A stretch of 64,000 nt of DNA from the IMG/VR virus record IMGVR_UViG_3300048587_001176; one strand, 5' to 3'. Shown here in pieces: positions 19,029 to 42,362 of the stretch. This DNA is from an uncultured virus (IMG/VR IMGVR_UViG_3300048587_001176). Lineage: Duplodnaviria; Heunggongvirae; Uroviricota; Caudoviricetes. The notes under the pieces are model-generated. The model was given only the letters and a program-made list of their open reading frames with translations, had not been told where the DNA came from and made no database searches. Position numbers and translations under genes: made by a program. Every line of letters begins with the position of its first letter. Within the stretch, counting starts at the first letter, position 1.

Positions 19029-19177
19029 GTCTATCTCCGAAGGTTCATGATTGAGGGGTTGAGATGCTGAGTGCCCGAGTTGGGCGGGTTTGGCGGGGCT
19101 GGAAGATCTAGCAGGTAGGGCAGCCGTTTAGCCCGCTAGACGTGCCAAGCCGCCGCGCTTTGAGAGAGGCCGGAAGT

Positions 19178-19199
19178 AAAAAAGGTGGTGGGCCACCAC
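19178..19199 (-). terminator. intrinsic terminator after mcrC
   Basis: Minus strand GTGGTG-gcc-CACCAC-C-TTTTTT. Confidence 0.6.
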
Positions 19200-19210
19200 T
19201 CAGGCCACGA

Positions 19211-20461
19211 CTAGTGGAAGAGCGCCGCGACCTTCTCGATCATCTTGTCGCTCGCGGCGTCCAGGTCGCCGCCGATGTCAAGCTGATAGTGGTAGAATTT
19301 GGCGCCTGTTAAGACGGCGCCCACGTACTCCAGGCCGCCGGCTTTGCCTGGCTGCGCCGGCGAGATCCAGACACCGACCTTGCTCCCCGATGCCAAGACG
19401 TGGCTAAGCACCTGGTACCGGTCGCTCTCCTCGATGCCCGGCTTGTATTTCACTTCGCCCAGGCCGATGACGACCTTGTTCTTCCGGAAGATCAGATCCG
19501 GCTTCGTTGGGAACCGCTTGTTGTCGAGGAATAGCTTGCCGTGGTGCTGGGGCTTGTTCCCGTCGAGCACGGCGATCTTCTGGTCAGCCAGGGCCGCGCG
19601 GAAAACGTTCCGGATGTAGCTCTCGAAGATGTCGTCGAGCGAAAACAGGAAGCTCGGCATCTCCGTGCCGTGGGCGTCATAGGCGAAGCCGATACGGCTG
19701 TAGCCCAGCAGCATCGAGTAGACCGTCAGCGCGCCGCGATACCCGTCCCTTAGCCACGCTGGGACCGTCCCTGCCGCGGCCTGCCCGCCGAACTGCATCC
19801 GCTGCGGGGTGACCATCCCAAGGGCGTTCATCGCCTCGCCGATCAGCTTGCGGTCCTCGTCCCACTGGTCGCCGCGCGGCATCACGTGAAGGAAGGCCAT
19901 GCAGGCCGACTTCAGCAAGGCGTTGGGGTAGATTCCGGCCGAGAACGTGAAGGAGTCCGCGGCGACGTTGAGCTGGTCGCCGCGCGCCAGGTAGCTCGAC
20001 ACGGTGCGCCCGAACTGCACCTTGGGCCGGTACAGGCCGCGGTGGTGCTCGAGGTAGTAGCCCCTGGCCACGCCGACGGTGAGGATCGATCGCAGGTAGT
20101 GGCAGAATCCCCGGGCCAGCATCTCGTGCGGCGGGATGGCGTTCGCCGCCTGGTAGGACCGCAGCACGGGGTAGATGCGATCGTAGTCGGTGTCGGCGAC
20201 CTCGAGCATGCGCCAGAGGTTGGCGATGGGGAACTTCGGCACCAGGTTGAGGACGATCTCGGGCGTCAGCGGAAGGTAGCCGATCAGGCCCTTCACCCTG
20301 AGCTCGATGCCCTCGAGCAGGTCGCGCATCTCGATCTTGTTGAGCTCGCGCGTCTCCGGCAGCAACAGCGAGTGGCCGTGCCGATCGAACAGCTCGTCCC
20401 GTTGGAAGAGCCGTGGGTCGCGCTCGCGCTGATCCAGGATGCGAACCGCGGCCTTGGCCAT
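19211..20461 (-). CDS. mcrC: McrC-family PD-(D/E)XK restriction endonuclease subunit
   Basis: GLIGYL..VLNLVPKFPIANLWRML, FESY, KPDL...GEVKYK...DRYQV; adjacent to McrB. Confidence 0.85.
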   Translation of the reverse strand: MAKAAVRILDQRERDPRLFQRDELFDRHGHSLLLPETRELNKIEMRDLLEGIELRVKGLIGYLPLTPEIVLNLVPKFPIANLWRMLEVADTDYDRIYPVLRSYQAANAIPPHEMLARGFCHYLRSILTVGVARGYYLEHHRGLYRPKVQFGRTVSSYLARGDQLNVAADSFTFSAGIYPNALLKSACMAFLHVMPRGDQWDEDRKLIGEAMNALGMVTPQRMQFGGQAAAGTVPAWLRDGYRGALTVYSMLLGYSRIGFAYDAHGTEMPSFLFSLDDIFESYIRNVFRAALADQKIAVLDGNKPQHHGKLFLDNKRFPTKPDLIFRKNKVVIGLGEVKYKPGIEESDRYQVLSHVLASGSKVGVWISPAQPGKAGGLEYVGAVLTGAKFYHYQLDIGGDLDAASDKMIEKVAALFH

Positions 20462-20464
20462 GGA

Positions 20465-22090
20465 TCAGGCCGCCGGCGCCGCTGCTTGCGGGGCCTCTTC
20501 CTCCGGGTCCTCGTTCGTCTTGAGAATGTTCTCGATCTCGTCGGACACCGCCTCGAACTTCTTGCGGTCGTGCAACAGGGCGCGGTGCAGGCCGAGGCGC
20601 ACGCGCCGCAGCCATACCGCCGCCAGATCGTCGACCGTCTTCACGCGCAGGAAGTTCGAATGGCCGAAGCCGTTCGGGAACGTCTCGTTGAGGATCTTGA
20701 AGACCTGCATAGTTCGATTGACCACGTTCTCCTCGACCTCAGCGGCCTCGAGGTGGCTCTGCAGGGTGGCCGCGTCGGGGTCGAGCTGAATGACCCAGAA
20801 GCGACGGAGCAGCGCGTCGTCCATGTCAGTCACGGAGCGATCGTATGGATTGGCCGTCGCGATCAGCACCAGGTTGTCGGGCAGCACGGCCTTCTTGCCA
20901 GAGAAGGGCAGCGTGAACTCGACGTTGCGGTAGTCCATCTCAAGGTACGTGAGCGCCTCGCCGAAAATGCGCGCCACGTCGCCGCGGTTGAGCTCGTCGA
21001 TGACGGCGACGAACTTCTTGTCCTTGTTCTCGGGCTTGGCTGCCTCGTTGGCAAAGCTCAGGAACAGACGCGAATCGAGGTCGTACTTGACGCCGGCGCC
21101 GCCGACTGCGGGCATGGGTCGAAAGCCCTCCATGAAGTCGTCGTACCCGATCGCCGGGTGGAACTGCAGGAACAGCACCCGATCCTTGTTGCCCTCGGTC
21201 ATCGCCAAGGCGATCTGCCTGGCGTAACGGGTCTTGCCGGTGCCCGGAGGACCTGCCAGCAGGAACGCGAGGCTCTCCTTCGCCTGCATGCCCTGGATGA
21301 CCGCGGCGTAGACAGGGTCGTCCTCGGACAGCAGGGGCTCGGCCTCGCCGCCAGCGACGCCACCCTCGGCCGGCTGCTCCTCGCCGTCCTCCTCCTCGCC
21401 GCCGCCATTGGCCATATAGGCCACCAGCTTGGGCGCCAACTCCAGTAGGAACTCCTCGTTCGTCGGGCGCTCATCGAGCGTCTCGGGCCATTCCACCGGC
21501 GGCTCGGTGAGCGAGAAGCGGCCGAGGTAGGGGGCGTTGAACTCCTCCAGGCCGAGCTGGCCGAGCAGGTAGGCGCGCAGGTCCTCCCAGCTGTCGATCT
21601 CGTCGGGGAAGCCCTCGAAGGCATAGAGCCAGACCAGGAAGTCCTCGAAGCGGAAGTCGTCCGGGATCTCGTCCTCGAACCGCGGCTGGAACTCGTCCGT
21701 GAGCCGGGTGATCGCCTTCTCGCCCTCGATGAGGCCCTGCAGTCGCATCTCGCGATAGCCGCGCGATGAGAACAGGTTACCCCACATCTTGGTGTCCTGC
21801 CGGATCATGTAGTCGCCCTCGAAGGGCGGCTTGGTCCATGCTGGAATGCCCTTGAGGCGGGGGCGCAGCAAGTTGTTGCCAGTGCCGGGATAGGGCTCGA
21901 TGCCGAGCCTGGCGCCGTTGAAATACCGGTCTAGGAAATGGTCAGTCCCGAGCCGCTGGGAGATGTCCACGAGCTCTTCGGTGCCGACATCGTTGGCAGC
22001 GAACACGAAGGCCGGAAGCAGCCAGTTCGCCTTGTACTCCTGCAGGCGCTCAATCGCCTCTTTGATAGTATCGATACTGAAATAGCGCAC
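20465..22090 (-). CDS. mcrB: McrB-family AAA+ GTPase with unrecognised N-terminal domain
   Basis: GPPGTGKT, QFHP..GYDDFMEG, IDELNRG, ATANPYD (NxxD), DDALLRRF. Confidence 0.9.
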   Translation of the reverse strand: MRYFSIDTIKEAIERLQEYKANWLLPAFVFAANDVGTEELVDISQRLGTDHFLDRYFNGARLGIEPYPGTGNNLLRPRLKGIPAWTKPPFEGDYMIRQDTKMWGNLFSSRGYREMRLQGLIEGEKAITRLTDEFQPRFEDEIPDDFRFEDFLVWLYAFEGFPDEIDSWEDLRAYLLGQLGLEEFNAPYLGRFSLTEPPVEWPETLDERPTNEEFLLELAPKLVAYMANGGGEEEDGEEQPAEGGVAGGEAEPLLSEDDPVYAAVIQGMQAKESLAFLLAGPPGTGKTRYARQIALAMTEGNKDRVLFLQFHPAIGYDDFMEGFRPMPAVGGAGVKYDLDSRLFLSFANEAAKPENKDKKFVAVIDELNRGDVARIFGEALTYLEMDYRNVEFTLPFSGKKAVLPDNLVLIATANPYDRSVTDMDDALLRRFWVIQLDPDAATLQSHLEAAEVEENVVNRTMQVFKILNETFPNGFGHSNFLRVKTVDDLAAVWLRRVRLGLHRALLHDRKKFEAVSDEIENILKTNEDPEEEAPQAAAPAA

Positions 22091-22093
22091 GCG

Positions 22094-23119
22094 TCACTCC
22101 GCGCTGGTTTTCGTCCCTGGCTTGCGGAAGTTGATCTTGTTCCCCGCCCATGAATTCCATAGCGGAGACGGCTTCAAAAGTCGCTTCTGAACTTCATCCC
22201 AGGTGGTCGGCTTGTGCCCGTCTGCTTGGAGGGTCGTCTCGATGTAATCGACGTAGTCCACGCCCATGTCGACGCCCACCACGTTCCGGTCATGCGCCAG
22301 GGCGGTGAAGATGGTCGTGCCGGATCCGACGAACGGGTCGAGTACGTGCCCGCCGACCGGCGACCCCACCTCGATGCAACGGCGGGCCAGCTCGGTCGGA
22401 AAGGCGGCGTTGTGGCCGGCATGCTTCGTCCGAAGGCTGCGCTCGATCGGGATGTTCCAGACGTCCTCCTCGACGAGCTTGGAGCGATCGAAGCTGTAGA
22501 ACCGGGTCTTGGAGAACATGAAGACGTGCTCATACTGCCGGTACGGGCGGTCGCGGGCGGTGGGCTCGACGAAGGCGTTGCCGCGGTTCCAGATGATGTC
22601 CGAGCGCAGCGTCCATCCCCGCTCCTGCATCGCGAAGGCGACCTTCCACGGCACGCCGATCATGGACTTCTTCGGGATGTCCCAGCCGCTCTGGTCGACG
22701 GGGCGCACCTTGGTGCGGGCGAAATTGCGGGACGAGGACCTAGGGTCGCTGCCGTGGGGCTGGCCGTTGCCGCTGTAGTAGGTGTCGCCGATGTTGAGGA
22801 AGAACACGCCCTCGGGGTGCAGCGTGCGCTTCACCTCGTCGAACACCTTCATCAGTGCGTCGATGTAGGCCTGGACGCTCTCTTCATGGCCCACCTGCCC
22901 ATCGTAGCCGTAGTCGCGAACCCAGTAGTACGGGGGTGACGTCACCGCCACGTTGAAGATCTCATCCGGCAACTGCCTTAGCATGGTGGAACTGTCACCG
23001 AGCATCACGCCAGCAATGTTGGTGTCTGCGGTGATCCAACTCGACCTGCCCATCGAGTTCCGTGAGGTAGTCGGGTTAGGAGTCATTCTCGGCGTGGTGT
23101 GGTCAGATCGGGCGGTCAT
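22094..23119 (-). CDS. beta-class amino-DNA methyltransferase (probably N4-cytosine)
   Basis: VTSPPYY precedes VLDPFVGSGTT; start MTARSD at 23119 after GGAG. Confidence 0.9.
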   Translation of the reverse strand: MTARSDHTTPRMTPNPTTSRNSMGRSSWITADTNIAGVMLGDSSTMLRQLPDEIFNVAVTSPPYYWVRDYGYDGQVGHEESVQAYIDALMKVFDEVKRTLHPEGVFFLNIGDTYYSGNGQPHGSDPRSSSRNFARTKVRPVDQSGWDIPKKSMIGVPWKVAFAMQERGWTLRSDIIWNRGNAFVEPTARDRPYRQYEHVFMFSKTRFYSFDRSKLVEEDVWNIPIERSLRTKHAGHNAAFPTELARRCIEVGSPVGGHVLDPFVGSGTTIFTALAHDRNVVGVDMGVDYVDYIETTLQADGHKPTTWDEVQKRLLKPSPLWNSWAGNKINFRKPGTKTSAE

Positions 23120-23291
23120 GTCGGTGCTCCAAGCACTTTGGTCTAAGGGAACGATAGTGAGTCGGGGGCGAGAAAACGACGGGGTGCGCTGCAACTGGCG
23201 GAGTTTTTCGGAGGACTGTTGCTGGTTTCAGGTTGCTCCGAAGCAGCCCGTCAGGCGGACACTCTTTGTGTCGGCGCGGTGACCGGATGCC

Positions 23292-23960
23292 TCAAAGCTC
23301 GGGATCCCTCCCATTGACAGGCTCGAGGTAACCCTCCGGGTGATAGTTCAACGGGTTGTTGTTGCTCACCCGCCAGTCGTAGAGCTGCACCGCGTTGTCC
23401 CACTCGTCGAGCTGGGCTTGGCGCAGGTCGAGCTTCACCCAGATGCTCTCGCCATCCACCTTGGTGACCGTGCCGAGCTCGCCCTCGACGACCTCGCCGG
23501 ACAGAGGGTAGTTGAACTCGAACGCCCGCTTGAAGCGCACCCGGGTGCCGACAGGGATCGTCGGCGTGCCGCGGATGTGGAGCAGGGCCTGGGTGAGGAT
23601 GTCGAGGGCGGCGTCGATCGCCACCTGCATCTCGGGAGCAGTGTCGCCGGGTAGGCCGCTGAGCACTGCCGCCGCTGCCCCGTCGAAGTGGCGCTGCACC
23701 ACGGCGCGGACGCCGTCAAAGGTGGCGATCAGCGGCTCCGGCGGCAGCGGGACAGCCGGCCCCTTGTAGGCCGCGTCCTCCCCCTCCCAGACGCCTGTGA
23801 TGCGGGTGTCATGCCCGTTCTCGTAGTCCTTCTTGGAGGTGGACCAGTCGTCATCGGCGAGAGCGAGCTCGCAGGCGTCCGCCACAGTGGCGGCTTCGTA
23901 GGTAACCTGCCGGTAGACGGGCAGGTCGTAGGTGGTTTCGATGGTAAACTGGGGCATCAC
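23292..23960 (-). CDS. hypothetical multi-domain protein
   Basis: FTIETTYDLPVYRQVTYEAAT N-terminus; SH3-like C-terminus. Confidence 0.7.
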   Translation of the reverse strand: MMPQFTIETTYDLPVYRQVTYEAATVADACELALADDDWSTSKKDYENGHDTRITGVWEGEDAAYKGPAVPLPPEPLIATFDGVRAVVQRHFDGAAAAVLSGLPGDTAPEMQVAIDAALDILTQALLHIRGTPTIPVGTRVRFKRAFEFNYPLSGEVVEGELGTVTKVDGESIWVKLDLRQAQLDEWDNAVQLYDWRVSNNNPLNYHPEGYLEPVNGRDPEL

Positions 23961-24376
23961 TCGCCCTCCTCTTCTGCGGCGTTCATGGTGTCGGCGAGCG
24001 AGTTGAGCTCGTCGATGCTCTCGATCGAATTGCTCAGGGAGCGAGACATGATGATCTCGCGGAGGGTGTCGTAGAGGACGTAGGTTTCCCCGTGGTCGGC
24101 CTGGTAGGGCTGCACCACATACCGCGGCTCAGGCTTCGGCTCCTCGGCGGCGGACAGGGCATCGTTGGGATCGGTGGCTGTCATCAGCTCCTGGATTTCG
24201 CAGGCGAAGGCCCAGGCCTTCTGGCTGCGGGGGTCGGGCTCGTCGTAGAACCGGTGGTCGTCGGCGACCTCGTAGCCGGTGCCGAGGAAGCGCAGGGCGA
24301 GTCGGGCCAGGACGTTGGTCTGCTCGACGATCTCCTCGTCAGTGCGGGGCACGCCGAGGATGAGGGGGAAGGTCAT
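23957..24376 (-). CDS. hypothetical acidic protein
   Basis: Start MTFPLI after GGAGA. Confidence 0.7.
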   Translation of the reverse strand: MTFPLILGVPRTDEEIVEQTNVLARLALRFLGTGYEVADDHRFYDEPDPRSQKAWAFACEIQELMTATDPNDALSAAEEPKPEPRYVVQPYQADHGETYVLYDTLREIIMSRSLSNSIESIDELNSLADTMNAAEEEGE

Positions 24377-24668
24377 GGGGTATGATCTCCATAGGTGCAT
24401 GGTTGCGGTTCACCTGGTCTGTCCGACCAGGCGCTGGTGACGAAAAAGGGCGGCCATAAGGGCCGCCCTGAACATTCGTGGCAGTAGGATGGATCGGCCG
24501 GAGGCCGGTGACCGAGGGGCTCGAAAGGCCGCGATAGCCAGTCCCGACCGGACCAATCGCCACTCCCGCTTGGGGCTCAGGCGATCGTAGAAGTAGTAGA
24601 TCATCACCCCGTTGTCGTTGTTGAGGCGGCTGTACCGGAAGGTCCGAGCCGAGATTGTGGCCATGCCT

Positions 24669-24989
24669 TCACTGCGTCGGATTGAGCTCGCCGCGATAGC
24701 AGCGAAGCTCCCAGGCGTTCCTGAAATCGAGGGTCTGCTTGGCTTGGTTTTCGGGCACCTCGAGCCGAGGCAGATCGTAGGCGGCAAAGATCATGGTGGC
24801 TTGCAGGTTGACCAGCCATTCGTCGTCGGTTTTGCGCGCCACCGCCATCTGGGATGAGAGCGGGGCGTTAGCCTGGCGCGCCTCCATGATTGACTGAGCA
24901 AGATCTCCGATAGTTACGCAGGCATCGGCGAGGGCAGGCACTGCGCTGGCAAGCAGCACGAAGGCGGCGAGAGCAAATGGCGTCTTCAT
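24669..24989 (-). CDS. secreted/periplasmic protein with signal peptide
   Basis: MKTPFALAAFVLLASAVPALADAC; two Cys. Confidence 0.7.
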   Translation of the reverse strand: MKTPFALAAFVLLASAVPALADACVTIGDLAQSIMEARQANAPLSSQMAVARKTDDEWLVNLQATMIFAAYDLPRLEVPENQAKQTLDFRNAWELRCYRGELNPTQ

Positions 24990-25222
24990 ACGGGGATCCT
25001 TTCGAGGGGGATGTAGCCGTCGCGAATGGCAGCGGCGATGGCGGCGCAGGTCTTTAGTCGTCCGCAGGGTGAGCGGCTAGCAGCTTTTCTGAGAACGATC
25101 CGGCCGCGATCGAGGTCGAGGTCGAAGCTGATGGGGGAACCGGTAAGGAACGGCCGGTAGGACAGGCGAAGGCCCTTGTCGGGCCAGAGCCCGCCGACGA
25201 CCTTGAAGTGCGAGGCCCTCAT
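24986..25222 (-). CDS. hypothetical protein
   Basis: 78-aa coupled ORF. Confidence 0.5.
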   Translation of the reverse strand: MRASHFKVVGGLWPDKGLRLSYRPFLTGSPISFDLDLDRGRIVLRKAASRSPCGRLKTCAAIAAAIRDGYIPLERIPV

Positions 25223-26766
25223 GACTTGGTCCGGAACTGGATGATGCAGGTGTTGACGTAGGTTCCGACCTCAGCAAAAGAGCCGGGCGGCAGGTCGTGC
25301 CACACGGCGTGGTGTGAGGCCATGAGTTCGCGGAAGGCGATGGCCTTGCGCGTCTCGCGGAACTCGGTGCCGGCCGACATAATGGAGGTCAGCTGGCCGC
25401 CGGGCTTCAGGAACTTCATGGCATGCACGACGTGGTCGATGTCTCGCTCGCGGTCGAACGGCGGGTTCATCACGATGACGTCGTAGAGGCCGGTCGTGTC
25501 CGGCGTCAGCTGCAGAAAGTCCAGAGCATAGACCCGGTTATAGATACCCTCCGCTTCGAGCTGCGCGGCCAGGTGAGGTTGAATTTCGACGCAGTCGACG
25601 AGATTGTCGAAACGGTAGTCTTTGGCGTGCCGCTCGCGGCCGCCCGACCACCCATCAAGCTCCTCGATTGTCCTGACGCATTGCCGGGCCAGGTTGCCCG
25701 TACCAGCGCTGGGCTCAAGGACACGAAGCTGCGGCTGGTCGGCGCGCCGCAGAACATGGATGCCCTTCAGGTTCCATCTACCGCTGAACATCTCGCTCAG
25801 CGCGTCCTTCGGGGTCGGATAGAAGCCGAAGTATTTCGCCGGCAGGTGCTTCACCTCGGCGAAGGGGTCGGCCTCGGTGGCGTTCGCATCGCCGATCACC
25901 TCGCCGTAGTAGTCGGCCAGGATCTTGTTCACCTGCTCCACCAGATCGGGGCGCGTGAACCATGGGTGCGCGTTGCCATTCTTGAAGATGCGGATCTTCA
26001 TGTAGGCCGACTCGATCTCGCTCTGCTTCGGGCTCCAGGTGTTCTGCCGGTCCCGATCGATGAGGTTCACAATGGTGCCGTAGCTGGGCAGGGCCATGCC
26101 TTCGAGGACGTAGAAGACCCGCTCGATGTCGAGCAGCTGATCCTGCTTGCCGCCCCACCTCAGCTTGCCGTGTTCGCGGTCGCAGACGTAGTCGACGATC
26201 ATTCGCGAGCCGATCTTGAAGCCATCGTGCGACCGGAAGCGGCGGTCCAGGCTCGAGAACACGTTGGCGATGCCGCGGCGGAAGATCATGTCGGCGTCCA
26301 ACATGAACTGCTGCAAGGTGGCCTGGACGTTCTCGACGGTGAGCTCGGGCAATCCGCGGCCAGCCTCCTCTTCGGTGATCAACTCGCCATCGCGGCCTAC
26401 CCGATCCGGGACGTACCGCATCTGGCTGCGCAGCTTGTCCTTGGCCTCCTTATCCATCAGCCGCTCGAGGTCTGTGCGCTGGATGATGTAGGCCCAGGCG
26501 TTGACGTCGATGAGCTTGCGAGCGGTGCGCAGATAGCGCTCCCGGTCCGGCAACTTCAGCGCGTTGTGGAACTCTTCCAGCTCGCGCTCCTGGTAGTAGT
26601 TGTAGCCGTTGGTGCCCGGGTGGGCGCGGCTCGCCATCTCGGCGGCTTCCTTCAGCGCCTCGTCGGCTTGAGCCATCACATCGAAGGCCTTGCCGTACAG
26701 GGTGATGGCAGCATTTCGGGCTGCGACGATCTGCTCGATCGTGGCGCGGGGCATAATCGCGTTCAT
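25219..26766 (-). CDS. DUF4942-domain amino-DNA methyltransferase
   Basis: FRSHDGFKIGSR, KIRIFKNGNAH; FYPTP, VLEPSAGTG, VMNPPF. Confidence 0.85.
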   Translation of the reverse strand: MNAIMPRATIEQIVAARNAAITLYGKAFDVMAQADEALKEAAEMASRAHPGTNGYNYYQERELEEFHNALKLPDRERYLRTARKLIDVNAWAYIIQRTDLERLMDKEAKDKLRSQMRYVPDRVGRDGELITEEEAGRGLPELTVENVQATLQQFMLDADMIFRRGIANVFSSLDRRFRSHDGFKIGSRMIVDYVCDREHGKLRWGGKQDQLLDIERVFYVLEGMALPSYGTIVNLIDRDRQNTWSPKQSEIESAYMKIRIFKNGNAHPWFTRPDLVEQVNKILADYYGEVIGDANATEADPFAEVKHLPAKYFGFYPTPKDALSEMFSGRWNLKGIHVLRRADQPQLRVLEPSAGTGNLARQCVRTIEELDGWSGGRERHAKDYRFDNLVDCVEIQPHLAAQLEAEGIYNRVYALDFLQLTPDTTGLYDVIVMNPPFDRERDIDHVVHAMKFLKPGGQLTSIMSAGTEFRETRKAIAFRELMASHHAVWHDLPPGSFAEVGTYVNTCIIQFRTKS

Positions 26767-26812
26767 GTGGTCTCTCTTGTGTCAGGGGTGACGGTTGTTC
26801 GGCCGGCGGCAG

Positions 26813-27199: not shown

Positions 27200-27202
27200 C
27201 GC

Positions 27203-28088: not shown

Positions 28089-28102
28089 GTCCTTTGGGAT
28101 GG

Positions 28103-28648: not shown

Positions 28649-28684
28649 GGGGATCTCCTTCGGTGCATGGTTGCGGGGGTTAGC

Positions 28685-31065: not shown

Positions 31066-31074
31066 TGGCGGCTC

Positions 31075-31901: not shown

Positions 31902-31910
31902 CGTGGTTCC

Positions 31911-33604: not shown

Positions 33605-33665
33605 TGGTCTCTCTCTGGTGCACAGGTGCGGGGGAGGGGCGGCGCCGAAGCGCCGCCGCCAGTCG

Positions 33666-34667: not shown

Positions 34668-34683
34668 TGTGATCTCCGAGGTG

Positions 34684-34962
34684 TCAGGATTGACGGTTGA
34701 GGGGCAGGAGGCCGTCGCGCACTGCGGCGGCGATGAGCGTGAGCGTGATCGTCCAAGGGGCGATCTGATCTTTGAGGAAAGTGCCGTTCGCCTCGCGGCG
34801 GACAAGGCGTGTCCACATCTGTTCGCCTTGCCGGGTCAGCACCCAGATGCGCTCGGCGCTACGGGCCGACGCGTCGGTGAAGGTGAGGGTCCACGACTGG
34901 CCGTCCGGCGCAGCGCTGAAGTGCCGCGCCGGGGTGAAGGTCTTGGCGCTGATCGTGGCCAT
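34684..34962 (-). CDS. hypothetical protein
   Basis: 92-aa coupled ORF. Confidence 0.6.
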   Translation of the reverse strand: MATISAKTFTPARHFSAAPDGQSWTLTFTDASARSAERIWVLTRQGEQMWTRLVRREANGTFLKDQIAPWTITLTLIAAAVRDGLLPLNRQS

Positions 34963-35168
34963 CAGTCCCAGGTGAAGAAGATGACTTCGGTGTCGACCTC
35001 CATCACGTAGCCGGTAGGTAGGCCGAGGACGCTGCGCACGGCAGCGGCCTCCGCCTTCGCTTCGTCGCGGGTGCTGGCCCGCAGCTCCCGCTCCTCGAAC
35101 TTCTGGTTGTTCTGCACCACCCAGTGCATCACGAACTTGGCCGGGTTGGCCTGCTGGGCTTCGGTCAT
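34962..35168 (-). CDS. hypothetical protein
   Basis: 68-aa coupled ORF. Confidence 0.6.
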   Translation of the reverse strand: MTEAQQANPAKFVMHWVVQNNQKFEERELRASTRDEAKAEAAAVRSVLGLPTGYVMEVDTEVIFFTWD

Positions 35169-36067
35169 ACGAGGTAAGCTCCGATCTGGTCGATGATGGC
35201 CTGGGCCTTGGCCTTGGTCTCGTCGCGCGCGGCCTCGCTGTTGCGCAACGTGTCGGGTTCGAAGCGGGCGAGCTGCTGAAGCTCGCCGGCGATGCGGTCG
35301 AGTTCCGGGTTACCGGTGATGTTGAGGGACGGCATGATGTTGCAGAGGTCGCGGACGTTCAGCACCAGCGAGTCGCGGAAGTAGCCCTCGGTGCGCTCAC
35401 CCTTCTGGGTCGCGGGTTTGAAGGCGGTCAGGCGCTCGACCATCTTGCTGGCCACGTCGTGGACCCGCTCGTAGACCTGCTTCACTGCGGTGTTGGTCGC
35501 GGAGGTGATCGACGCCTCGATCTGCTCGCGGATAGCGGCCGCCTGATGCTCGCTCATCTGCACCCGGAAGTCGTCGGCCGACGGCGCCGGCATGATGTCC
35601 ATCGCCATGTCGAAGCGGTGGCGCAGGTCGTAGGCGTCGGGGAAGTCCTTCGGGTCGAACATGTCGCCCATCCGGCGCTGAGCGTCGGCGGTGTAGGCGG
35701 GGTACTTGGTCAGAAACTCGTCGACCGCGTCCCTGAACTTCTGCTTCTGCCCCCGAAACCATTCGGAGTGGGCGAAGAAGCCGTCGGCCCGCATGATGCG
35801 GCTGCCGTCGTTCAGCCAGGGCAAGGTGCGCTTGATGAAGTCGTGGCGGGTGGCGCTCACCACCTTGTTGATGCCCTCCAGCGCCTCCTTGGGCAGGAGG
35901 TGCTTGTTGAAGTTGCCGGCATCCTTGGCGGCGTTCTTCTGGGCCGTCACCTCTTCGGTCACGCGCCGGTCGAGGCGCTGGGCCGACCACTGGCTGATGG
36001 TGAGGGACACCACCATCGCACGGGTGGCGAGGGCGTTGCTGACGGACATGGGGGTAATGGCGTTCAT
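35165..36067 (-). CDS. DUF3150-like protein
   Basis: LTISQWSAQRLD, KRTLPWLNDG.RI, DFP, FRDSLV.N...LNITGNPEL; next to AAA/vWA. Confidence 0.75.
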   Translation of the reverse strand: MNAITPMSVSNALATRAMVVSLTISQWSAQRLDRRVTEEVTAQKNAAKDAGNFNKHLLPKEALEGINKVVSATRHDFIKRTLPWLNDGSRIMRADGFFAHSEWFRGQKQKFRDAVDEFLTKYPAYTADAQRRMGDMFDPKDFPDAYDLRHRFDMAMDIMPAPSADDFRVQMSEHQAAAIREQIEASITSATNTAVKQVYERVHDVASKMVERLTAFKPATQKGERTEGYFRDSLVLNVRDLCNIMPSLNITGNPELDRIAGELQQLARFEPDTLRNSEAARDETKAKAQAIIDQIGAYLV

Positions 36068-36100
36068 TCGTTGGTCTCCGAGTGCCGCATGATCGCGGGG

Positions 36101-36826
36101 TTATTGGCCTTGGAAGGTGCTGATGGCCCAATGGGCCAGCAGCTCGTTTGCACCCTCGCGACAGGCGTCGAGGGTAAGGTATCGCCGGTCCAGGTCGTCG
36201 GCGGTCCGGCAATCGGGCTCCCTGAAGGTCAGGGTGATCTCGACGAGGGGCTCCTCGCGCCACGGGTTGGCCGTGTCGTTGGTGTCGAGGTAGGCGATGT
36301 CGATGCCGTACTCGTACTTGCCGTCGAGCACCTGATCTTGGTGCTCGTCGAGCTCCTCGCGCTCCTTGTCGTCGAGCTCATCGCGCAGGTTCCAGACGGC
36401 TTCGCCGACGTCATGGTCGACCTCGTCTTTGGTCTTGCCCAGCTTGTCGGCGGCGTACTCGTAGAGGGCCAGCCGACGCTGAGGATCGGTTAGCTCGGCG
36501 ACGGCCTCGGCCAGCGTGGCGTGCTCCATGAGGAAGGATTTCAGGGCCTCATAGCTCTGCTGCGCAACGCTCTCCTCCAGCCGCTTCGGCAGCCAGCCGC
36601 TGCCGTAGGAGCTGCTGACGTGCCCGGTGAAGGCGATTGCCACGCCACCGGAGGCGTTGGGCCACATGGAGCGATAGCCGTCGTCTGACACCAACTCGAC
36701 GTCGGTGCGGGCGATCTCGTCGTAGCTCCCGAACGTCGACCTCATCTCGTCGGTGAAGGTGGCGGCCCACTCGTCGACTTCGAGAAATGCCTCGGGGATG
36801 TCGACGGCCCTGCGCCCCGCCATCAT
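36101..36826 (-). CDS. very acidic hypothetical protein
   Basis: 241 aa, D/E-rich. Confidence 0.7.
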   Translation of the reverse strand: MMAGRRAVDIPEAFLEVDEWAATFTDEMRSTFGSYDEIARTDVELVSDDGYRSMWPNASGGVAIAFTGHVSSSYGSGWLPKRLEESVAQQSYEALKSFLMEHATLAEAVAELTDPQRRLALYEYAADKLGKTKDEVDHDVGEAVWNLRDELDDKEREELDEHQDQVLDGKYEYGIDIAYLDTNDTANPWREEPLVEITLTFREPDCRTADDLDRRYLTLDACREGANELLAHWAISTFQGQ

Positions 36827-37605
36827 GCCGGGAGCGCGAGGCTACGCTCGCGCGGCAGCGGGATCGAGGGCTTGTCGGCTACCCACCGCAGGATGTCGTG
36901 CCTGGCCTGAGAGATGGCCTCGGGCAGGCAATACTCCTCGTAGTCGCCGACGAAGCCCCAGCAGGCGTCGAGCTCCTCGCGCTCGTCGTCATCCTCGTCG
37001 CCGTCCTCGTCGAGGGCGGCTGGGCCAAGAATTTTGAAGCCGTAGACGTTGCCGGTGGCCCAGTCCGAGTATTCCTCGACCTCGCCCTGCATCAGCTTTC
37101 GGGCGCGCTCGATGGTTTCGGGGGTGACGGCGCCGTATTCGCTGATGATCTGGGCGTTGGTCACCCAGATGAAGCCGTAGTCGCCCGAATTGCGCGCGGC
37201 CAGCTCGGCGTCGCACACACTGACGTCGCCGTGATAGCCGATGTCGAGGCCGAGGATCAGGCCATGCTCGGCCATGTTGCGGAGGAGCTTGCCAGGGTCT
37301 TCCTCGACGCGCCCCTCGATGTCGCCCTCTTGGAGCGCCCACAGGTCATCGGGCGTCTCGTCGGGCTCGCGGTAGAGGGCTCGAACGAGGAAGTCGTCGA
37401 GGCCAAACTCATCCATTGCGCGGCTGATGAGATACTGGGCGCGGCTGCACCGGGGCTGCTCGTCGCCGATCATGCGGTCACGGGACCAGCCCGCCATGCA
37501 GGCGAAGGTGTCGCAGTCCTCGCGGGGGTTGGCGGGGTCGTCGTCGTGGTGGATCTCGACGCGGAAGCCGTGAGGCAGCTCCTCGATGTGGGTGGGCTGC
37601 ATCAC
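36823..37605 (-). CDS. very acidic hypothetical protein
   Basis: DDDPANPRE...EVEEYSDWATGNVYG...DACWGFVG. Confidence 0.75.
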   Translation of the reverse strand: MMQPTHIEELPHGFRVEIHHDDDPANPREDCDTFACMAGWSRDRMIGDEQPRCSRAQYLISRAMDEFGLDDFLVRALYREPDETPDDLWALQEGDIEGRVEEDPGKLLRNMAEHGLILGLDIGYHGDVSVCDAELAARNSGDYGFIWVTNAQIISEYGAVTPETIERARKLMQGEVEEYSDWATGNVYGFKILGPAALDEDGDEDDDEREELDACWGFVGDYEEYCLPEAISQARHDILRWVADKPSIPLPRERSLALPA

Positions 37606-37799
37606 AGGCGCGCCCCATCGAGGACGATGAGGCAGCCGATCGCGTCAGGGGAGACGAGGCAGCCGTCCTCGGTGGCGAGCTTTCCCTCAATGCGCTGGAC
37701 TGTGACGCCGATCGCGAAGGCGGCGGCGATGGCGACGAGAACGGAGCAAACGATGGCCGCGCGGCGGCGGGCCAGCTGCTGCTGGGTCGGGTAGAACAT
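37602..37799 (-). CDS. small membrane protein
   Basis: RRRAAIVCSVLVAIAAAFAIGV; start MFYPT after GGAGA. Confidence 0.6.
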   Translation of the reverse strand: MFYPTQQQLARRRAAIVCSVLVAIAAAFAIGVTVQRIEGKLATEDGCLVSPDAIGCLIVLDGARL

Positions 37800-37882
37800 G
37801 ATGATCTCCGGGAGTGCCAGGTGGCGGGTTCGGACTGAGCGTCCTGTGCGACGCGCCGCGAAGGGCGCGTCAGGCGGGGTGC

Positions 37883-38323
37883 TCAGGCAGTGGTCAGGTG
37901 GAGGCGGCGGTCGTCGCCGACATAGATGTCGATCGAGGAGTACCGTTTGGCGATCTTCGACAGCATGTCGCCCACTGGATCGACCCAGTCGCCGTCCCAG
38001 AAGCCCGCGCCGGCGCCATTGCGGGTCAGCCAGAAGTCGTGACCAGCAAGGCTGATGGCGTCGCTGTCGCCGCGGTAGTTGCGGCGGTCGAGGAAGCCAT
38101 CGCGCAGGGCGGGGCGGCAGCGCTCCTGAAAGTCGGCGCAGTCCCGCACGGCCTTGGCGAGCGAGTTGAAGGCGATGTCCTCGATCTCGTAGTTCTTGTC
38201 GAGTGGGTCGTCGTTGTCGTCGGACGTGCTCCACAGGGCGGTGACGAGATACTGGCGGGTGAAGTCGTCGAGGGTCGCCACCAATTCGAGTGTCTGAGGG
38301 TCGCGGCGGGCCTTGATCGCCAT
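37883..38323 (-). CDS. conserved-looking hypothetical phage protein
   Basis: YLVTALWS...AGHDFWLTRNGAGAGFWDGDW. Confidence 0.75.
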   Translation of the reverse strand: MAIKARRDPQTLELVATLDDFTRQYLVTALWSTSDDNDDPLDKNYEIEDIAFNSLAKAVRDCADFQERCRPALRDGFLDRRNYRGDSDAISLAGHDFWLTRNGAGAGFWDGDWVDPVGDMLSKIAKRYSSIDIYVGDDRRLHLTTA

Positions 38324-38565
38324 TAGCTGGCCCCGCAGGCGAGGCCGTCGGAGGTAGCGCCGGCGACGAGGTCGTCGACGAATCGGGGTTCGACCACGAG
38401 GGAGTGCCCGTACCAGAGGGAGGCGGGGTCGACGTGCTCCTCGATCCACTGCGTCCCCTCGTCAGTGAGCGGGGTGCACAGCACGATATTGCCGAGGAAG
38501 TTGAACTCGAGGTCGCGCGGGGGAGTGGCGATGGCGAAGGGGTCGAGGGCGTCGAGGACGGTCAT
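38323..38565 (-). CDS. hypothetical phage protein
   Basis: LCTPLTDEGTQWIEEHV...VVEPRF. Confidence 0.7.
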   Translation of the reverse strand: MTVLDALDPFAIATPPRDLEFNFLGNIVLCTPLTDEGTQWIEEHVDPASLWYGHSLVVEPRFVDDLVAGATSDGLACGAS

Positions 38566-38843
38566 CAGGGGTCTCCGGGGTTGCCAATGTTGGCGGGTGG
38601 CAGGTTTTGGACGGCGTACTCCAACGCCCAGGCCAGGGCGCCGGTTTTGGTGCGCAGGCTGATTATCGGGCGGGAGCCGGCGACCCCGTAGATGTGCCAT
38701 TTGCGGGTGCCGGGCTGGCGATCGACAATGGCTAGGCAGTGGTTGTCGGGGTCGTAGTAGGCGATCTCCACGAAGCCGGTGGAGTAGTGGTCTTCGCGGA
38801 TGCGGATGCCGCGCTCAGTCACTTCGCGGGAGCGGGTCAGCAT
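38565..38843 (-). CDS. hypothetical protein
   Basis: 92-aa coupled ORF. Confidence 0.6.
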   Translation of the reverse strand: MLTRSREVTERGIRIREDHYSTGFVEIAYYDPDNHCLAIVDRQPGTRKWHIYGVAGSRPIISLRTKTGALAWALEYAVQNLPPANIGNPGDP

Positions 38844-39223
38844 CAGTGCCTCCGGGCCTGCGCGGCTTCGGCGCTGGCGGCGCGGCCGGCGAAGTGGGAG
38901 CGCACCTTGTCGGGGGTGACCTTGCGGATGGTGCCGCGGCGGTCAGCGTGGCAGGTGGTCCAGTACCACTGTGGGGGGTGCATGCTCGACACGTAGGCTT
39001 CGAACACTTCGAGGGACAGGCGCAGGGCCTCGAGGGGCTTCTCGGCGTCATGGCGGATGATGACTGCGCAGGTGCCGTGCTCGCGCGGAGCCCAGATTAG
39101 GACGTCCCGGTGCCGCAGGGCCTGGCAGATGCGCAGGTCATGCTCGGTGAGATCGGCGTGGTAGTATTTCACCACGGGGGCGGCGAGGCGCTTCAGCTGC
39201 TGGTAGACGGTCGGGTCGGTCAT
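38843..39223 (-). CDS. hypothetical protein
   Basis: YHADLTEHD...IWAPREHGT. Confidence 0.65.
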   Translation of the reverse strand: MTDPTVYQQLKRLAAPVVKYYHADLTEHDLRICQALRHRDVLIWAPREHGTCAVIIRHDAEKPLEALRLSLEVFEAYVSSMHPPQWYWTTCHADRRGTIRKVTPDKVRSHFAGRAASAEAAQARRH

Positions 39224-39423
39224 GCTGCCACCGCGTACCAGCCTGCAGGGCGATGGGTGGCGTCGAGGACTTCGATGTCGTCGGCGCCGAGCATCCAGCC
39301 GTGGATGCGCAGGGTCTCGCCGTCCTCGGTCAGGACGTCGAAGTCGCCTTCGAGGTCAGGGTCGCGGTCGAGGGTGTCGGCGATGAAGGCGGAATGGATA
39401 GGGGTTTCGATGCGCAGGCGCAT
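39220..39423 (-). CDS. small acidic protein
   Basis: 67 aa, GGAGA RBS. Confidence 0.65.
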   Translation of the reverse strand: MRLRIETPIHSAFIADTLDRDPDLEGDFDVLTEDGETLRIHGWMLGADDIEVLDATHRPAGWYAVAA

Positions 39424-39509
39424 GGGAGGTCTCCGAGGGTGGCCATGATTGGCGGTTGGGGGCGAAGCGCCCAGTGCAGCGCCCCGGCGAGGGGGCGCTA
39501 GGCTGGGGG

Positions 39510-39746
39510 TTACGCGGGGTCGATTGCGAGCACGATGGGGCTGCGCAGGGTGCCGGGCACGTAGGCGAAGACGTCGTAACCGTCGTTGGCGGCGTCGTCC
39601 TCGCCCACGCTCTCATAGGCGGCGCCACCGAAGGCCTTTTCGAGCGTCGGGCCGATTGCGGCCTTGGCTTCGTCCATCGAGGGGAAGGTGCCAAGCACTC
39701 GGCCAAGCATCAGGCCGTCGGTGTAGTCGGTCAGGCGGTAGGGCAT
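39510..39746 (-). CDS. hypothetical protein
   Basis: Start MPYRLT after GGAGG. Confidence 0.65.
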   Translation of the reverse strand: MPYRLTDYTDGLMLGRVLGTFPSMDEAKAAIGPTLEKAFGGAAYESVGEDDAANDGYDVFAYVPGTLRSPIVLAIDPA

Positions 39747-39754
39747 TGCGCCTC

Positions 39755-39973
39755 CTACGGGGTGAAGTTGGGGTTGACGTGGTAGCCGGGGATCTCGAGC
39801 GCGAGGATCAACGCGGCCTCGATGCCGCGGTTCACGTAGCGGGTACGGTCGGCCTTGATCTTGCGGGCCTCGGCCGGGGGAGTGTCGGGGCCCAGTTCGC
39901 CGACGGTTGCGCCGGCGAGTTGGGCATAGGTGACGGGGTGCAAGTAGCCCCGGGTGCGGTAGAGCTTGGACAT
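39755..39973 (-). CDS. hypothetical protein
   Basis: 72-aa ORF. Confidence 0.6.
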   Translation of the reverse strand: MSKLYRTRGYLHPVTYAQLAGATVGELGPDTPPAEARKIKADRTRYVNRGIEAALILALEIPGYHVNPNFTP

Positions 39974-39979
39974 GGGGTG

Positions 39980-40126
39980 TCACGCGGCGATCAGGATGCG
40001 GCGGCCGACCATCTTGCGGGCCTGTTCGGCCTTCCGGGCGAGGAAGGCGCGGGCCTCGGCGGCTTGACGTTCGCGGGCGGTTTCGTGCTGCTCGGCCTTG
40101 GGCGTGCGGAAGTAGGGGTGCGGCAT
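39980..40126 (-). CDS. small basic protein
   Basis: MPHPYFRTPK, GGAGA RBS. Confidence 0.55.
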   Translation of the reverse strand: MPHPYFRTPKAEQHETARERQAAEARAFLARKAEQARKMVGRRILIAA

Positions 40127-40264
40127 TTGGGGGGGGTCTCCGTAGGTGCCATGATTGGCGGGTTTCGGCCTTGCAGCCGTCAAACCGGGCCAGATTGCCC
40201 GGTCAGAGGGGTGCAAGTGCACCCCCTCGCAGGGGAGGGGGTGCCGGGGTTGCAGGGGAGGGGA

Positions 40265-40816
40265 TTAGGCGGCGACCTTCTCGGCCTTGGCCTTGGCCTT
40301 GTTCTTCGCGGTGCCTTCCTTCGACGTGGCGACCGTCACCACGTTGCCACCGTTCAGGACGGCCTCGGCCTCAGCGACCAGCTGATAGGCCTTGACGTGC
40401 TGGAGGTGAGCGCCCGCCTTTTCGGCCGCCTTGAGCAGGGCCGCCAGCTTGGCGGCGAAGTCAAATTCACCCTTGGCACCGGCCGACTCGGGCTTGAAGT
40501 CTAGGACCGGGCAGGCGGCCGCGCCCTCAAGGTCGCCCTTCGCGGCCTTGTTATAGGCGAACTTCACCACGCCGGTTTCTTCGTCCGTGGCGACCTTGAC
40601 CTTGCCGAAGGCCTTCGCCCATGCGGCGATTGCCGCCTTCGTCACCTTGCCGCCCATGTTGTCATAGAGCCGCTGAAGGGGGCGCACGTCACCCGATGCG
40701 TCGACATGGGCGAGGCAGGAATAGGCCACCGTGTGAAGCTGGCCGCTGAACTTGGCGCCAGCCTTGACCACGGAATTGATAGCCGCATTGAGCTTGTTCG
40801 AAGCGATAACCTGCAT
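40265..40816 (-). CDS. basic Ala/Lys-rich protein, first gene of the accessory operon
   Basis: LNAAINSVVKAGAKF..LHTVAYSCLAH...GD...AWAKAFG. Confidence 0.75.
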   Translation of the reverse strand: MQVIASNKLNAAINSVVKAGAKFSGQLHTVAYSCLAHVDASGDVRPLQRLYDNMGGKVTKAAIAAWAKAFGKVKVATDEETGVVKFAYNKAAKGDLEGAAACPVLDFKPESAGAKGEFDFAAKLAALLKAAEKAGAHLQHVKAYQLVAEAEAVLNGGNVVTVATSKEGTAKNKAKAKAEKVAA

Positions 40817-41437
40817 TTGTCAGTTTCCTTTGTTGCCATAATTGGCGGGTTTGGGCGGATTGCCCGTTGCGCCGCACCGTCAAGGGTGCGGCGTAAGAGG
40901 CAATGCGCGGGGGGCTCGCAAACCCCCCGCCTTTCGATTTTTCAATCGTGCCATATTTGGCGGAATTGAAATTCACACTATCGCGCAAGCCCGGGTTCAA
41001 CCTTCCCGTTCGGATTTTTGCGTTCAGCCGTTGTGCCGCCGCGCGCCTCCCCCTCTCACAAGGTGACGTGCCACGGTGCCAGAACCTAGCAAGCCGTTCG
41101 GCGATGCTAGTTGCGCTTTTTCCATAGGTTCACTTTTGCCCCTCAACCTTCCGAACCGGCTTTGTCATGCCGCTTCGATTGGTCCGCCTGTTACGGTCTA
41201 GTGTGATGCAAGGCCCTCGCCTCCCCTCCTAACCGTTGTCGGTTAGGCCATCGCACTAATCAGCCTAGGGGTTTGCCCCGCCGATGGTGCCGGATTGTTT
41301 AATCAGCGTTCCGTCTACGCCGCTTCCCTAAAGGTCGCCCGGTTCACAATGTCTAGTCCAACTCACCCCGCGTAATGCGACGTGCATTCCTAAGTTTGGT
41401 TCCGGGCGTTTCGTTCCTTCCGTTTGCGTTTCGATGC
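40817..41437 (-). ncRNA. putative ~620-nt structured leader / ncRNA
   Basis: No credible ORF; purine-rich on the minus strand; many stems (40859-40904, 40907-40930, 41086-41110, 41199-41258, 41337-41407). Confidence 0.5.
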
Positions 41438-42286: not shown

Positions 42287-42362
42287 TAAGTGAGCGGTTT
42301 TTGACCTCAAAAATTGAGGGTTCGCGTTCGTTTTTGCTGGAAATCACGCAGGAGACGGGCCG

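Follow-up and report, generated by a model that had tools for sequence, protein, structure and literature searches.

A structured start-associated hairpin in the accessory operon of Hyphomicrobiales prophages

Introduction

The closest described counterpart of the element reported here is the start-associated sequence (SAS) of Cluster K mycobacteriophages, together with its extended form (ESAS), which has the same layout and an equally unknown function (Pope et al. 2011, PMC3203893). Our subject is a small hairpin repeated at gene starts in 64,000 nucleotides of DNA from an uncultured member of the Caudoviricetes (IMG/VR record IMGVR_UViG_3300048587_001176), a stretch referred to as a whole as the window. 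The SAS is a fixed 13-bp sequence, GGGATAGGAGCCC, with a GGAG core, located 3 to 7 bp from start codons; 11 to 19 copies per genome occur in one orientation and in the non-structural half only, are enriched for ATG starts, and are conserved before unrelated genes (PMC3203893). The ESAS consists of 17-bp imperfect inverted repeats with a 4- to 13-bp spacer, for which the authors considered RNA pairing unsupported and favored DNA binding (PMC3203893). The likeness to the window is one of layout only (12 copies, on one strand, before starts, in an accessory block). In contrast to the ESAS, the arms here are 3 to 4 nt long around a 4-nt loop, with pairing kept by compensatory change, and the element is a 12-nt hairpin with strong covariation in a different host phylum and phage lineage. 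Searching the window with the SAS consensus gave three matches at two or fewer mismatches (2.02 ± 1.42 expected), none of them at a gene start.

The Aca2 and Aca1 motifs are small covarying hairpins in the 5' untranslated regions of phage counter-defense operons and are bound by a regulator from the same operon (PMC13551039). Aca2 blocks ribosome binding, the rationale being control of expression despite a rising DNA copy number; each operon has a single motif, which immediately follows the transcription start and is paired with an inverted-repeat promoter operator, and the regulator is a recognizable helix-turn-helix (HTH) protein (PMC13551039). These motifs act as the hairpin tag may act under the proposal made below. 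Unlike them, the hairpin occurs in 12 copies over 22 kb inside an operon (9 to 16 in relatives), one per independently translated cistron; no HTH Aca-like protein was recognized here and no matching DNA operator was found. In phage T4, RegA represses about 30 mRNAs at A+U-rich, unstructured sites, and RegB cuts GGAG in intergenic Shine-Dalgarno sites of early genes, needing a 3' A-rich context and being inhibited by structure (PMC3014915). The resemblance is that many early mRNAs are targets of a single phage protein at their initiation regions, yet neither RegA nor RegB uses a dedicated hairpin tag, and no homologue of either was recognized here.

The operator of MS2-type coat proteins is a small hairpin with an ANYA tetraloop by a ribosome site, where protein binding represses translation, and AUCA is a tight-binding variant of its loop. 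It has a longer stem and a bulged A, includes the start codon, and occurs once per genome of an RNA phage. An ANYA loop is present in 47 of 73 curated copies of our hairpin, with AUCA commonest (28/73). The likeness is a lead only; none of the 73 copies has a bulge, and no levivirus coat protein was found by Pfam or PHROGs, although it was not specifically sought. Lambda nut combines boxA with boxB, a 5-bp stem with a GNRA-like pentaloop, in one or two copies per operon, and the RfaH ops element has a fixed sequence of 12 nt; neither is linked to Shine-Dalgarno sites. Both resemble the present case in that the leader of a long phage or accessory operon contains a small hairpin, which a dedicated factor recognizes as the operon is transcribed. 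In contrast to nut, the loop here is 4 nt long in 73 of 73 copies, the stem has 3 to 4 bp, and there are 9 to 16 copies per genome; boxA was not searched for. The T4-type PeSL, a stem-loop followed by a sigma-70-type early promoter, differs in that positions 23000 to 42500 of the window hold one sigma-70-like match against 2.0 expected, and none at a copy. Integron attC sites are imperfect palindromes of 57 to 141 bp with RYYYAAC and GTTRRRY ends, handled by an integron integrase, and differ by inspection in size from a 12-nt hairpin.

An initial annotation, made from the window sequence alone, had known of no named system matching the hairpin. Rfam release 15 likewise gave no match in the whole window at gathering thresholds, and in positions 33500 to 41100 at E ≤ 1 it gave ssnA only (17.6 bits; cutoff, 37.3). 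No description of the element was found in the literature covered, which excludes subscription journals.

Hairpin copies in the window

All 13 hairpins listed in the initial annotation are present on the minus strand at the positions claimed. Each of the 12 called gene proximal is followed, as had been reported, by GGAGA, GAGAG, or GGAAA and a start codon (ATG in 11, TTG in 1), and the count of ANYA loops (8 of 13) was reproduced. A covariance model, R1, was trained on these 12 copies; in agreement with the earlier reading, it places none in the replication or late operons of the window. The window (64 kb of phage DNA; 65% G+C) carries replication and recombination genes from 1 to 17.3 kb and a long leftward block from 17.8 to 40.8 kb. 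The cargo of this block comprises methyltransferases, an McrBC-like pair, and a trio of a DUF3150-like gene, a MoxR ATPase, and a DUF2201 protein (metallopeptidase plus VWA), the remaining genes having no family. The features concerned are as follows.

17830 to 40816, minus strand: leftward accessory block, site of all gene-proximal hairpin copies
40950 to 40961, minus strand: leader copy, GCCA-AATA-TGGC, without Shine-Dalgarno site or start (R1, 11.3 bits; E, 2)
40907 to 40930, minus strand: GC-rich stem-loop with an 8-bp stem between the leader copy and copy 1, seen in the leader sequence
40824 to 40856, minus strand: copy 1, C-tract, GCCA-ATTA-TGGC, spacer, AGGAAA; ATG at 40816 of the first gene (34.7 bits)
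40265 to 40816, minus strand: first gene of the block, 183 aa, phrog_1448, no Pfam family; candidate partner from its co-occurrence with the motif
40137 to 40169, minus strand: copy 2, GCCA-ATCA-TGGC, GGAGA; ATG at 40126 of a 48-aa open reading frame (ORF) (38.9 bits)
39430 to 39463, minus strand: copy 3, GCCA-ATCA-TGGC, GGAGA; ATG at 39423 (34.9 bits)
38572 to 38604, minus strand: copy 4, GCCA-ACAT-TGGC, GGAGA; ATG at 38565 (from sequence and R1)
37805 to 37835, minus strand: copy 5, GCC-ACCT-GGC, GGAGA; ATG at 37799 (26.6 bits)
36075 to 36107, minus strand: copy 6, CGCG-ATCA-TGCG with a G-U closing pair, GGAGA; ATG at 36067 of the DUF3150-like, 300-aa gene (from sequence and R1)
34673 to 34704, minus strand: copy 7, GTCA-ATCC-TGAC, GGAGA; ATG at 34667 of the MoxR-type ATPase (from sequence and R1)
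33608 to 33640, minus strand: copy 8, GCA-CCTG-TGC, GAGAGAGA; ATG at 33604 of the DUF2201 protein; preceded by a GC-rich stem-loop (from sequence and R1)
28654 to 28685, minus strand: copy 9, GCA-ACCA-TGC, AGGAGA; TTG at 28648 (from sequence and R1)
26771 to 26802, minus strand: copy 10, GTCA-CCCC-TGAC, GAGAGA; ATG at 26766 of the DUF4942 methyltransferase (from sequence and R1)
24386 to 24417, minus strand: copy 11, GCA-ACCA-TGC, GGAGA; ATG at 24376 (from sequence and R1)
19034 to 19065, minus strand: copy 12, TCA-ATCA-TGA, GGAGA; ATG at 19028 (34.9 bits)

The conserved unit exceeds the hairpin. It runs from an A-rich and then a C-rich tract through NNCA, the tetraloop, TGNN, an A, and an A/C-rich spacer to GGAG(A) and the start, which lies 5 to 10 nt from GGAG(A); the element can thus be written as 5'-C-rich tract, NNCA-ANYA-UGNN, a 2- to 7-nt A/C spacer, GGAG(A), and start. 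The ORFs opened behind the 12 gene-proximal hairpins encode 48 to 515 aa, with a G+C fraction at third codon positions (GC3) of 0.82 to 0.93 in the 9 of the 12 for which it was computed. Copy 4 sits within the preceding ORF, at its 3' end, and the stop of that ORF overlaps the start at 38565; the loop region of copy 5 is 2 nt shorter than in its relatives, and an intrinsic-terminator-like hairpin (24447 to 24469) lies near copy 11.

R1 scored its 12 training copies at 24.0 to 38.9 bits and the next-best place in the window at 14.8 bits (E, 0.27; 64 kb, both strands, filters off). Training copies fit the model by construction, and the independent test is therefore the set of 60 matches in five untrained related records described below. 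A structure-neutral pattern (C-rich flank, NNC[AG]N4TGNN with pair 3, counted from the loop, Watson-Crick, a Shine-Dalgarno site, and a start) occurs at 10 minus-strand and 2 plus-strand sites of the window. That such sites might be as frequent in shuffled sequence had been raised with the initial annotation; 200 dinucleotide shuffles gave a mean of 0.81 (standard deviation, 0.91; maximum, 4) against the 10 on the minus strand.

Covariation and predicted fold

The compensatory stem changes described earlier were borne out in the 12 window copies, in which pair 3 is C-G in 5, G-C in 4, and U-A in 3, with none unpaired. Stem cells are paired in 91.7% of cases, against 70.9% in shuffles (0 of 500 reached the observed value) and 10 to 30% when partners were slid. 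A curated structure set of 73 copies from six genomes, aligned without gaps, carried the covariation into the relatives: pair 3 is Watson-Crick in 73 of 73 (C-G, 33; G-C, 32; U-A, 8) and pair 4 in 59 of 73. At the position outside pair 4, C stands opposite A in 55 of 73 copies and pairing is possible in only 2; since this position almost never pairs, the helix is held to 3 to 4 bp. The inner two pairs are fixed as C-G and A-U, and G-U is the sole departure from A-U at the loop-closing pair (5/71). All 73 copies have a tetraloop, of the form ANYA in 47 and NNYA in 57; AUCA is the commonest, in 28 of the 73. Among 72 model matches, 95.4% of stem cells are paired, compared with 71.8% in shuffles (0/500 reach this) and 12 to 34% with slid partners.

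Because R1 itself rewards pairing, copies were selected again using a weight matrix that masked the four outer stem columns; this matrix also replaced loose regular expressions, which had mixed true copies with noise. Among sites scoring at least 14 with a Shine-Dalgarno site and start, a set that includes G008, a duplicate of the related genome G004, pair 3 is Watson-Crick in 87 of 87 and pair 4 in 72 of 87. At sites scoring from 8 to below 10 without a Shine-Dalgarno site, pair 3 is Watson-Crick in 26 of 76. The same changes are seen at orthologous sites: of nine genomes compared before the DUF3150-like gene, four carry the stem GCCA/TGGC, three carry TGCA/TGCA, one carries CGCA/TGCG, and the window carries CGCG/TGCG, and the sites before the ATPase, DUF4942, and first genes show similar compensatory changes. 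These alignments indicate that pairing, not sequence, is under selection.

The isolated hairpin is predicted to be weak (−2.6 ± 1.0 kcal/mol). In its mRNA context the predicted pair probabilities are 0.56 to 0.77, and the flanks are unpaired with probabilities of 0.85 and 0.81. In these models, a weak hairpin with unpaired flanks suits a site presented to a protein.

Distribution in related phages

The hairpin first noticed in the window recurs in related phages. IMG/VR was scanned with the exact pattern of one form of the motif, which returned nine stretches, five of them in large records.

G001: IMG/VR provirus, 72 kb, rated 100% complete
G002: IMG/VR record, 53 kb
G003: IMG/VR provirus, 74 kb
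G004: IMG/VR provirus, 77 kb
G005: IMG/VR record, 75 kb

G005 is a close relative of the window (60 to 92% protein identity); G001, G003, and G004 share its build as distant relatives (24 to 60%), and G002 shares with the window only the accessory block. In G001 to G005, R1 found 16, 12, 9, 12, and 11 copies, respectively (E ≤ 0.1), that is, 9 to 16 per genome. On the block strand lie 57 of these 60 matches, and 2 of the other 3 precede rightward genes. The leader hairpin is kept at the same leader position in G005 (73701) and in a Devosia prophage (L030, 9844 to 9875).

Bacterial genomes were queried with aligned sequences of the block's first gene, which led to prophages in a Devosia metagenome-assembled genome (MAG), a Hoeflea MAG, Rhizobium sp. 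CF080, and Ensifer sp. MPMI2T. These four prophages contain 37 R1 matches (E ≤ 1), each in the same orientation as the first gene. Across the whole genomes of these bacteria (4.1 to 7.7 Mb), all 44 matches (E ≤ 1) fell in prophage regions, with 150 of 1,315 to 2,417 first-look candidates scored per genome; the hairpin is not a host-wide signal. Two further IMG/VR phages with a first-gene homologue also carry the motif, one of them with only 52% G+C. The prophage of Rhizobium sp. CF080 (G008, C8:242 to 276 kb) is the same as G004, since every compared hairpin copy and its 45-nt flank are identical.

At the DNA level the INPHARED phage collection held no relative of the window, the best terminase match in the phage collection being 44% identical, and a scan of bacterial genome contigs with the block ATPase as query found none. 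The closest named homologue of the first gene is from a Devosia sp., and its protein was also seen on a 317-kb contig, which makes the window a probable prophage; a tyrosine integrase is encoded at the end of G001, as is usual for prophages.

The element is thus conserved across phages whose proteins are only 30 to 60% identical, and gene content between copies varies among them. From these comparisons, we regard it as real, strongly conserved, and structured, and as associated with gene starts in an accessory operon of Hyphomicrobiales phages. A temperate-phage family of soil and water bacteria appears to tag most separately translated genes of one swappable accessory operon. The block of G001 also includes a full-length DNA polymerase III beta-clamp homologue (L012:7716 to 8924, minus strand) and a PAPS-reductase-domain protein (L012:4110 to 5171, minus strand), both hairpin tagged. 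Whatever its mechanism, the motif can serve in practice to mark the accessory block in Hyphomicrobiales prophages.

Anchoring to ribosome-binding sites

In the 73 curated copies, the stem ends 2 to 7 nt before the Shine-Dalgarno site (mode, 5 to 6), whereas the distance from the hairpin to the upstream stop ranges from −33 to +61 nt, with 5 of 44 copies inside the upstream ORF. The hairpin is therefore anchored to the ribosome site. By heuristic gene calls, the motif is present at 11 of 14 window junctions with a gap of at least 30 nt and at 1 of 20 shorter ones. The DUF2201 gene is tagged where a gap precedes it (window, G003, and G009) and untagged where its start overlaps the ATPase stop (G005 and G006). 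Motif presence tracks independent initiation, not gene identity.

Clear T-run terminators stand directly upstream of some copies, for example, in G001, G004, and G009. A terminator-like hairpin with a T-run lies within 70 nt upstream of 7 of 98 copies, compared with 17 of 490 random windows, and on these counts a rule joining terminator and motif was rejected. Between the leader copy and the first gene there is a GC-rich stem-loop in the window, G005, and G002, and in G001, G003, and G004 the first gene lies behind intrinsic terminators. The 30 nt upstream of the copies contain no conserved −35 element. Sigma-70, extracytoplasmic-function-type, and sigma-54-type promoter readings of the motif were dropped by eye (the −12 GC is absent, no −35 is conserved, and the spacing to GGAG varies), as was a reading of GGAGA as the −10 element of leaderless mRNAs, because its distance to the start ranges from 3 to 10 nt.

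A proposed translational operator and its candidate reader

The hairpin layout points to an undescribed way of jointly controlling a whole gene set. We propose, with a probability of roughly 0.4, that the hairpin serves as an mRNA operator tag and that translation initiation is controlled by a dedicated factor, probably phage encoded, which reads it. Because the covariation is free among Watson-Crick pairs, simple duplex-DNA recognition is ruled out, and the evidence points to a folded single strand, either mRNA or possibly the non-template strand in a transcription bubble. The fixed loop and closing pairs, strict helix length, and weak intrinsic stability favor a specific reader over passive structure, the tie to the Shine-Dalgarno site favors an effect on translation initiation, and the restriction of the motif to prophages suggests that the factor is phage encoded. 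Action as RNA, a protein reader, a translational effect, and the sign of that effect are what we infer from sequence. The initial annotation had read the hairpin as a shared RNA element coordinating about a dozen translation units. What stands of this is a structured, strand-specific element at about a dozen starts, given the covariation, the related phages, and the lack of an Rfam match; the cassette-exchange boundary that it also offered is the least favored of its options, because the stems differ yet stay paired, the opposite of what recombination homology needs.

Under the operator proposal, the hairpin would be a cis-acting tag on the mRNA of the leftward accessory (early) operon, built of a 3- to 4-bp hairpin whose inner pairs are fixed as C-G and A-U and whose tetraloop is of the ANYA type, and set in G-poor single-stranded flanks, 2 to 7 nt upstream of a strong GGAG Shine-Dalgarno site. 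One dedicated trans-acting factor would recognize the fixed loop and closing pairs together with helix shape. It would most likely be a phage-encoded protein, with the first gene as the sole candidate having any support. Bound beside the ribosome site, the factor would set translation initiation, most simply by occlusion and repression. Every cistron that starts translation on its own would thereby be controlled, and exchangeable cargo could be switched as one post-transcriptional regulon.

Three candidate proteins, at 40265, 17830, and 18098, had been named with the initial annotation. Only that encoded at 40265 to 40816, the first gene, gains support, as it co-occurs with the motif at 12 of 13 loci; the other two gain none. 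First gene and motif are both present in 10 of 10 block-bearing genomes examined and at 2 further IMG/VR loci, while a complete 80.6-kb phage (L001/G010; 47.6% G+C) keeps the DUF3150-like/MoxR/DUF2201 trio and lacks both. As the only block protein whose presence tracked the motif, the first-gene product is a weak candidate for the reader. Its protein belongs to no Pfam or PADLOC family, and in the Atlas it falls into viral hypothetical clusters only, the named leads (DUF3102 and phage repressor c) scoring 0.78, which is chance level. No HTH or ribbon-helix-helix family was found by Pfam in 35 block proteins, nor by PADLOC, and many block proteins have no family at all. Of 12 aligned first-gene proteins, 11 have a tail rich in Lys, Ala, and Pro that terminates in Ala-Ala. 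Such ends resemble C-terminal degradation tags, and by this analogy the tail would fit an unstable regulator.

Several results weigh against a translational operator read by the first-gene product. The predicted accessibility of the Shine-Dalgarno site is 0.42 unpaired in tagged and 0.40 in control genes; the hairpin alone therefore neither exposes nor hides the site, and a role as its exposer was rejected on these values. Leader copies in the window, G005, and the Devosia prophage have no Shine-Dalgarno site or start, and that of G002 has a Shine-Dalgarno-like GGAGAG and no start, from which it follows that at least part of the function is independent of an adjacent ribosome site. A hairpin in the non-template DNA strand of a transcription bubble would give the same covariation. 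A search for sequencing runs listed none recorded as RNA, and four wastewater runs labeled RNA-Seq consist of short contigs, probably of DNA, that show no starts, ends, or strand. Co-occurrence of first gene and motif may reflect only linkage through shared block ancestry, its negative control is the single genome L001/G010, and L048, which has a distant partial first-gene homologue, has no motif. The predicted first-gene model (predicted local distance difference test score, 74) matched no known structure significantly: the best Foldseek E was 0.55, the rows there being weakly winged-helix-like, and the VIA wide search gave generic helical arrays only, at Z ≤ 6. Known RNA-binding families in Pfam and PHROGs are absent from the window and G001 proteins except for a sub-threshold match resembling ribosome modulation factor (RMF). 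This motif (PF04957) lies in a window protein (6215 to 7348, minus strand; residues 338 to 376; 18.7 bits) and a G001 protein (L011:15305 to 15781, plus strand; residues 103 to 140; 21.0 bits), both below the cutoff of 27.9, and the two proteins are otherwise unrelated. The G001 gene is just upstream of a plus-strand hairpin copy.

A fuller version of the operator proposal strikes us as rather doubtful. The tag would be plug-and-play: genes landing behind the hairpin and Shine-Dalgarno cassette would fall under one phage RNA-binding master switch, maybe the unstable, K/A-tailed first-gene product, itself tagged, which would switch exchanged defense and counter-defense cargo post-transcriptionally. 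If true, DNA phages would possess a type of multi-cistron hairpin regulon not previously described in them. A single factor reading the tag would in any case provide a compact post-transcriptional regulon over mosaic phage cargo, whatever the genes encode; this cargo includes, in the window, methyltransferases, the McrBC-like pair, and the MoxR/VWA module and, in relatives, the beta-clamp homologue and the PAPS-reductase-like gene. The long-unexplained mycobacteriophage start-associated sequences would gain a structured counterpart testable by compensatory mutants, and a roughly 12-nt orthogonal RNA tag with its reader would become available for alphaproteobacteria.

Alternative explanations

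The intercistronic position of the hairpin, near the 5' side of each independently translated gene, would also suit a processing or stability signal, at which a host or phage endoribonuclease would cut beside the hairpin or a 5'-terminal hairpin would shield its segment from 5'-end-dependent decay, giving each cistron its own half-life. The start-less leader copies lie near the beginning of the operon transcript, where a terminal hairpin would protect, the flanks are G poor and single stranded, and a hairpin-specific nuclease would be well served by the fixed loop and closing pairs, Cas6/Csy4-type nucleases offering an analogy. We nevertheless think this unlikely: a stem of 3 to 4 bp at −2.6 kcal/mol is weak as a passive decay barrier, no nuclease family was recognized among the conserved block proteins, and the model does not need the tight Shine-Dalgarno spacing. 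The leader stem-loops, the terminators before the first gene, and the copies directly behind T-run terminators would fit co-transcriptional recruitment, in which a nut-like RNA or an ops-like non-template-DNA hairpin would load an antitermination or anti-polarity factor onto RNA polymerase at each cassette. A size of 12 nt fits a transcription bubble, as with RfaH at ops, and covariation is unable to separate RNA from non-template DNA. What makes recruitment quite improbable is that upstream terminator-like hairpins are found at few copies (7/98 versus 17/490 in random windows), that 9 to 16 sites per operon, each 2 to 7 nt from a Shine-Dalgarno site, are unexpected for a processive antiterminator, and that no NusG/KOW, N-like, or Q-like family was found. 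The loop is moreover a tetraloop and not a boxB-type pentaloop, and no boxA-like element was noticed, in the absence of a search for it.

A hairpin that is constantly linked to GGAG and mostly to ATG, has unpaired flanks, and is present wherever a gene starts after a gap, whatever the gene, could instead be a factor-independent part of the initiation region. A clamp hairpin with A/C-rich standby flanks would insulate a strong Shine-Dalgarno site, and acquired genes would be translated reliably. Such a passive clamp leaves the invariant C-G and A-U pairs, the ANYA-type loop, and the stop of the helix at a C/A mismatch unexplained; Shine-Dalgarno accessibility is no better than in control genes, and the leader copies have no gene to serve, all of which makes it very unlikely. 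We give a similarly poor chance to a DNA-level site, whether a promoter for a phage-directed form of polymerase, an operator like the L5 stoperators or ESAS, or a recombination boundary for cassette swaps. The copies are repeated, one directional, and located where genes begin in the non-structural portion of a temperate phage genome, as are stoperators and SAS/ESAS (PMC3203893); gene content between copies differs among relatives, and some copies follow terminators. Recognition of a duplex leaves free Watson-Crick covariation at two positions unexplained, however, and the scarcity of sigma-70-like matches in the block (1 versus 2.0 expected) and the lack of a conserved −35 upstream of copies speak against a promoter. 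No RNA polymerase or sigma gene was recognized, with about 10 kb of the genome lying outside the window, and the stem differences between copies cut the homology needed for recombination.

Other features of the window

Rightward from 42.4 kb, the window encodes the small and large terminase subunits, portal, a protease/major-head fusion, and decoration, baseplate, and tail-fiber proteins. A 1.5-kb stretch (40900 to 42360) in which G+C falls to 0.61 and no ORF has coding-type GC3 separates the divergent accessory and packaging operons. It likely contains a promoter; the 130 nt preceding the leader hairpin are well conserved with G005.

Within the block, the minus-strand segment from 19211 to 23194 is a compact group of an McrC-like gene (PF10117), an McrB-like AAA_5 ATPase, and a Type II N6/N4 methyltransferase. 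Since it is untagged by the hairpin and lacks homologues in the five IMG/VR relatives, this group looks like a recently acquired defense island. Between the regulatory gap and the small terminase gene, an 88-aa protein (43207 to 43473, plus strand) has an Acb2/Tad1 hairpin domain (PF24729; E, 2.6e-15, passing the cutoff) and, judging from this domain, would likely be a sponge against cyclic-nucleotide defense signals. A GapR-like DNA-binding domain (PF10073; E, 4e-6) is encoded at 10180 to 10584 (plus strand); it belongs to an alphaproteobacterial nucleoid protein family, which agrees with the Hyphomicrobiales hosts of the relatives.

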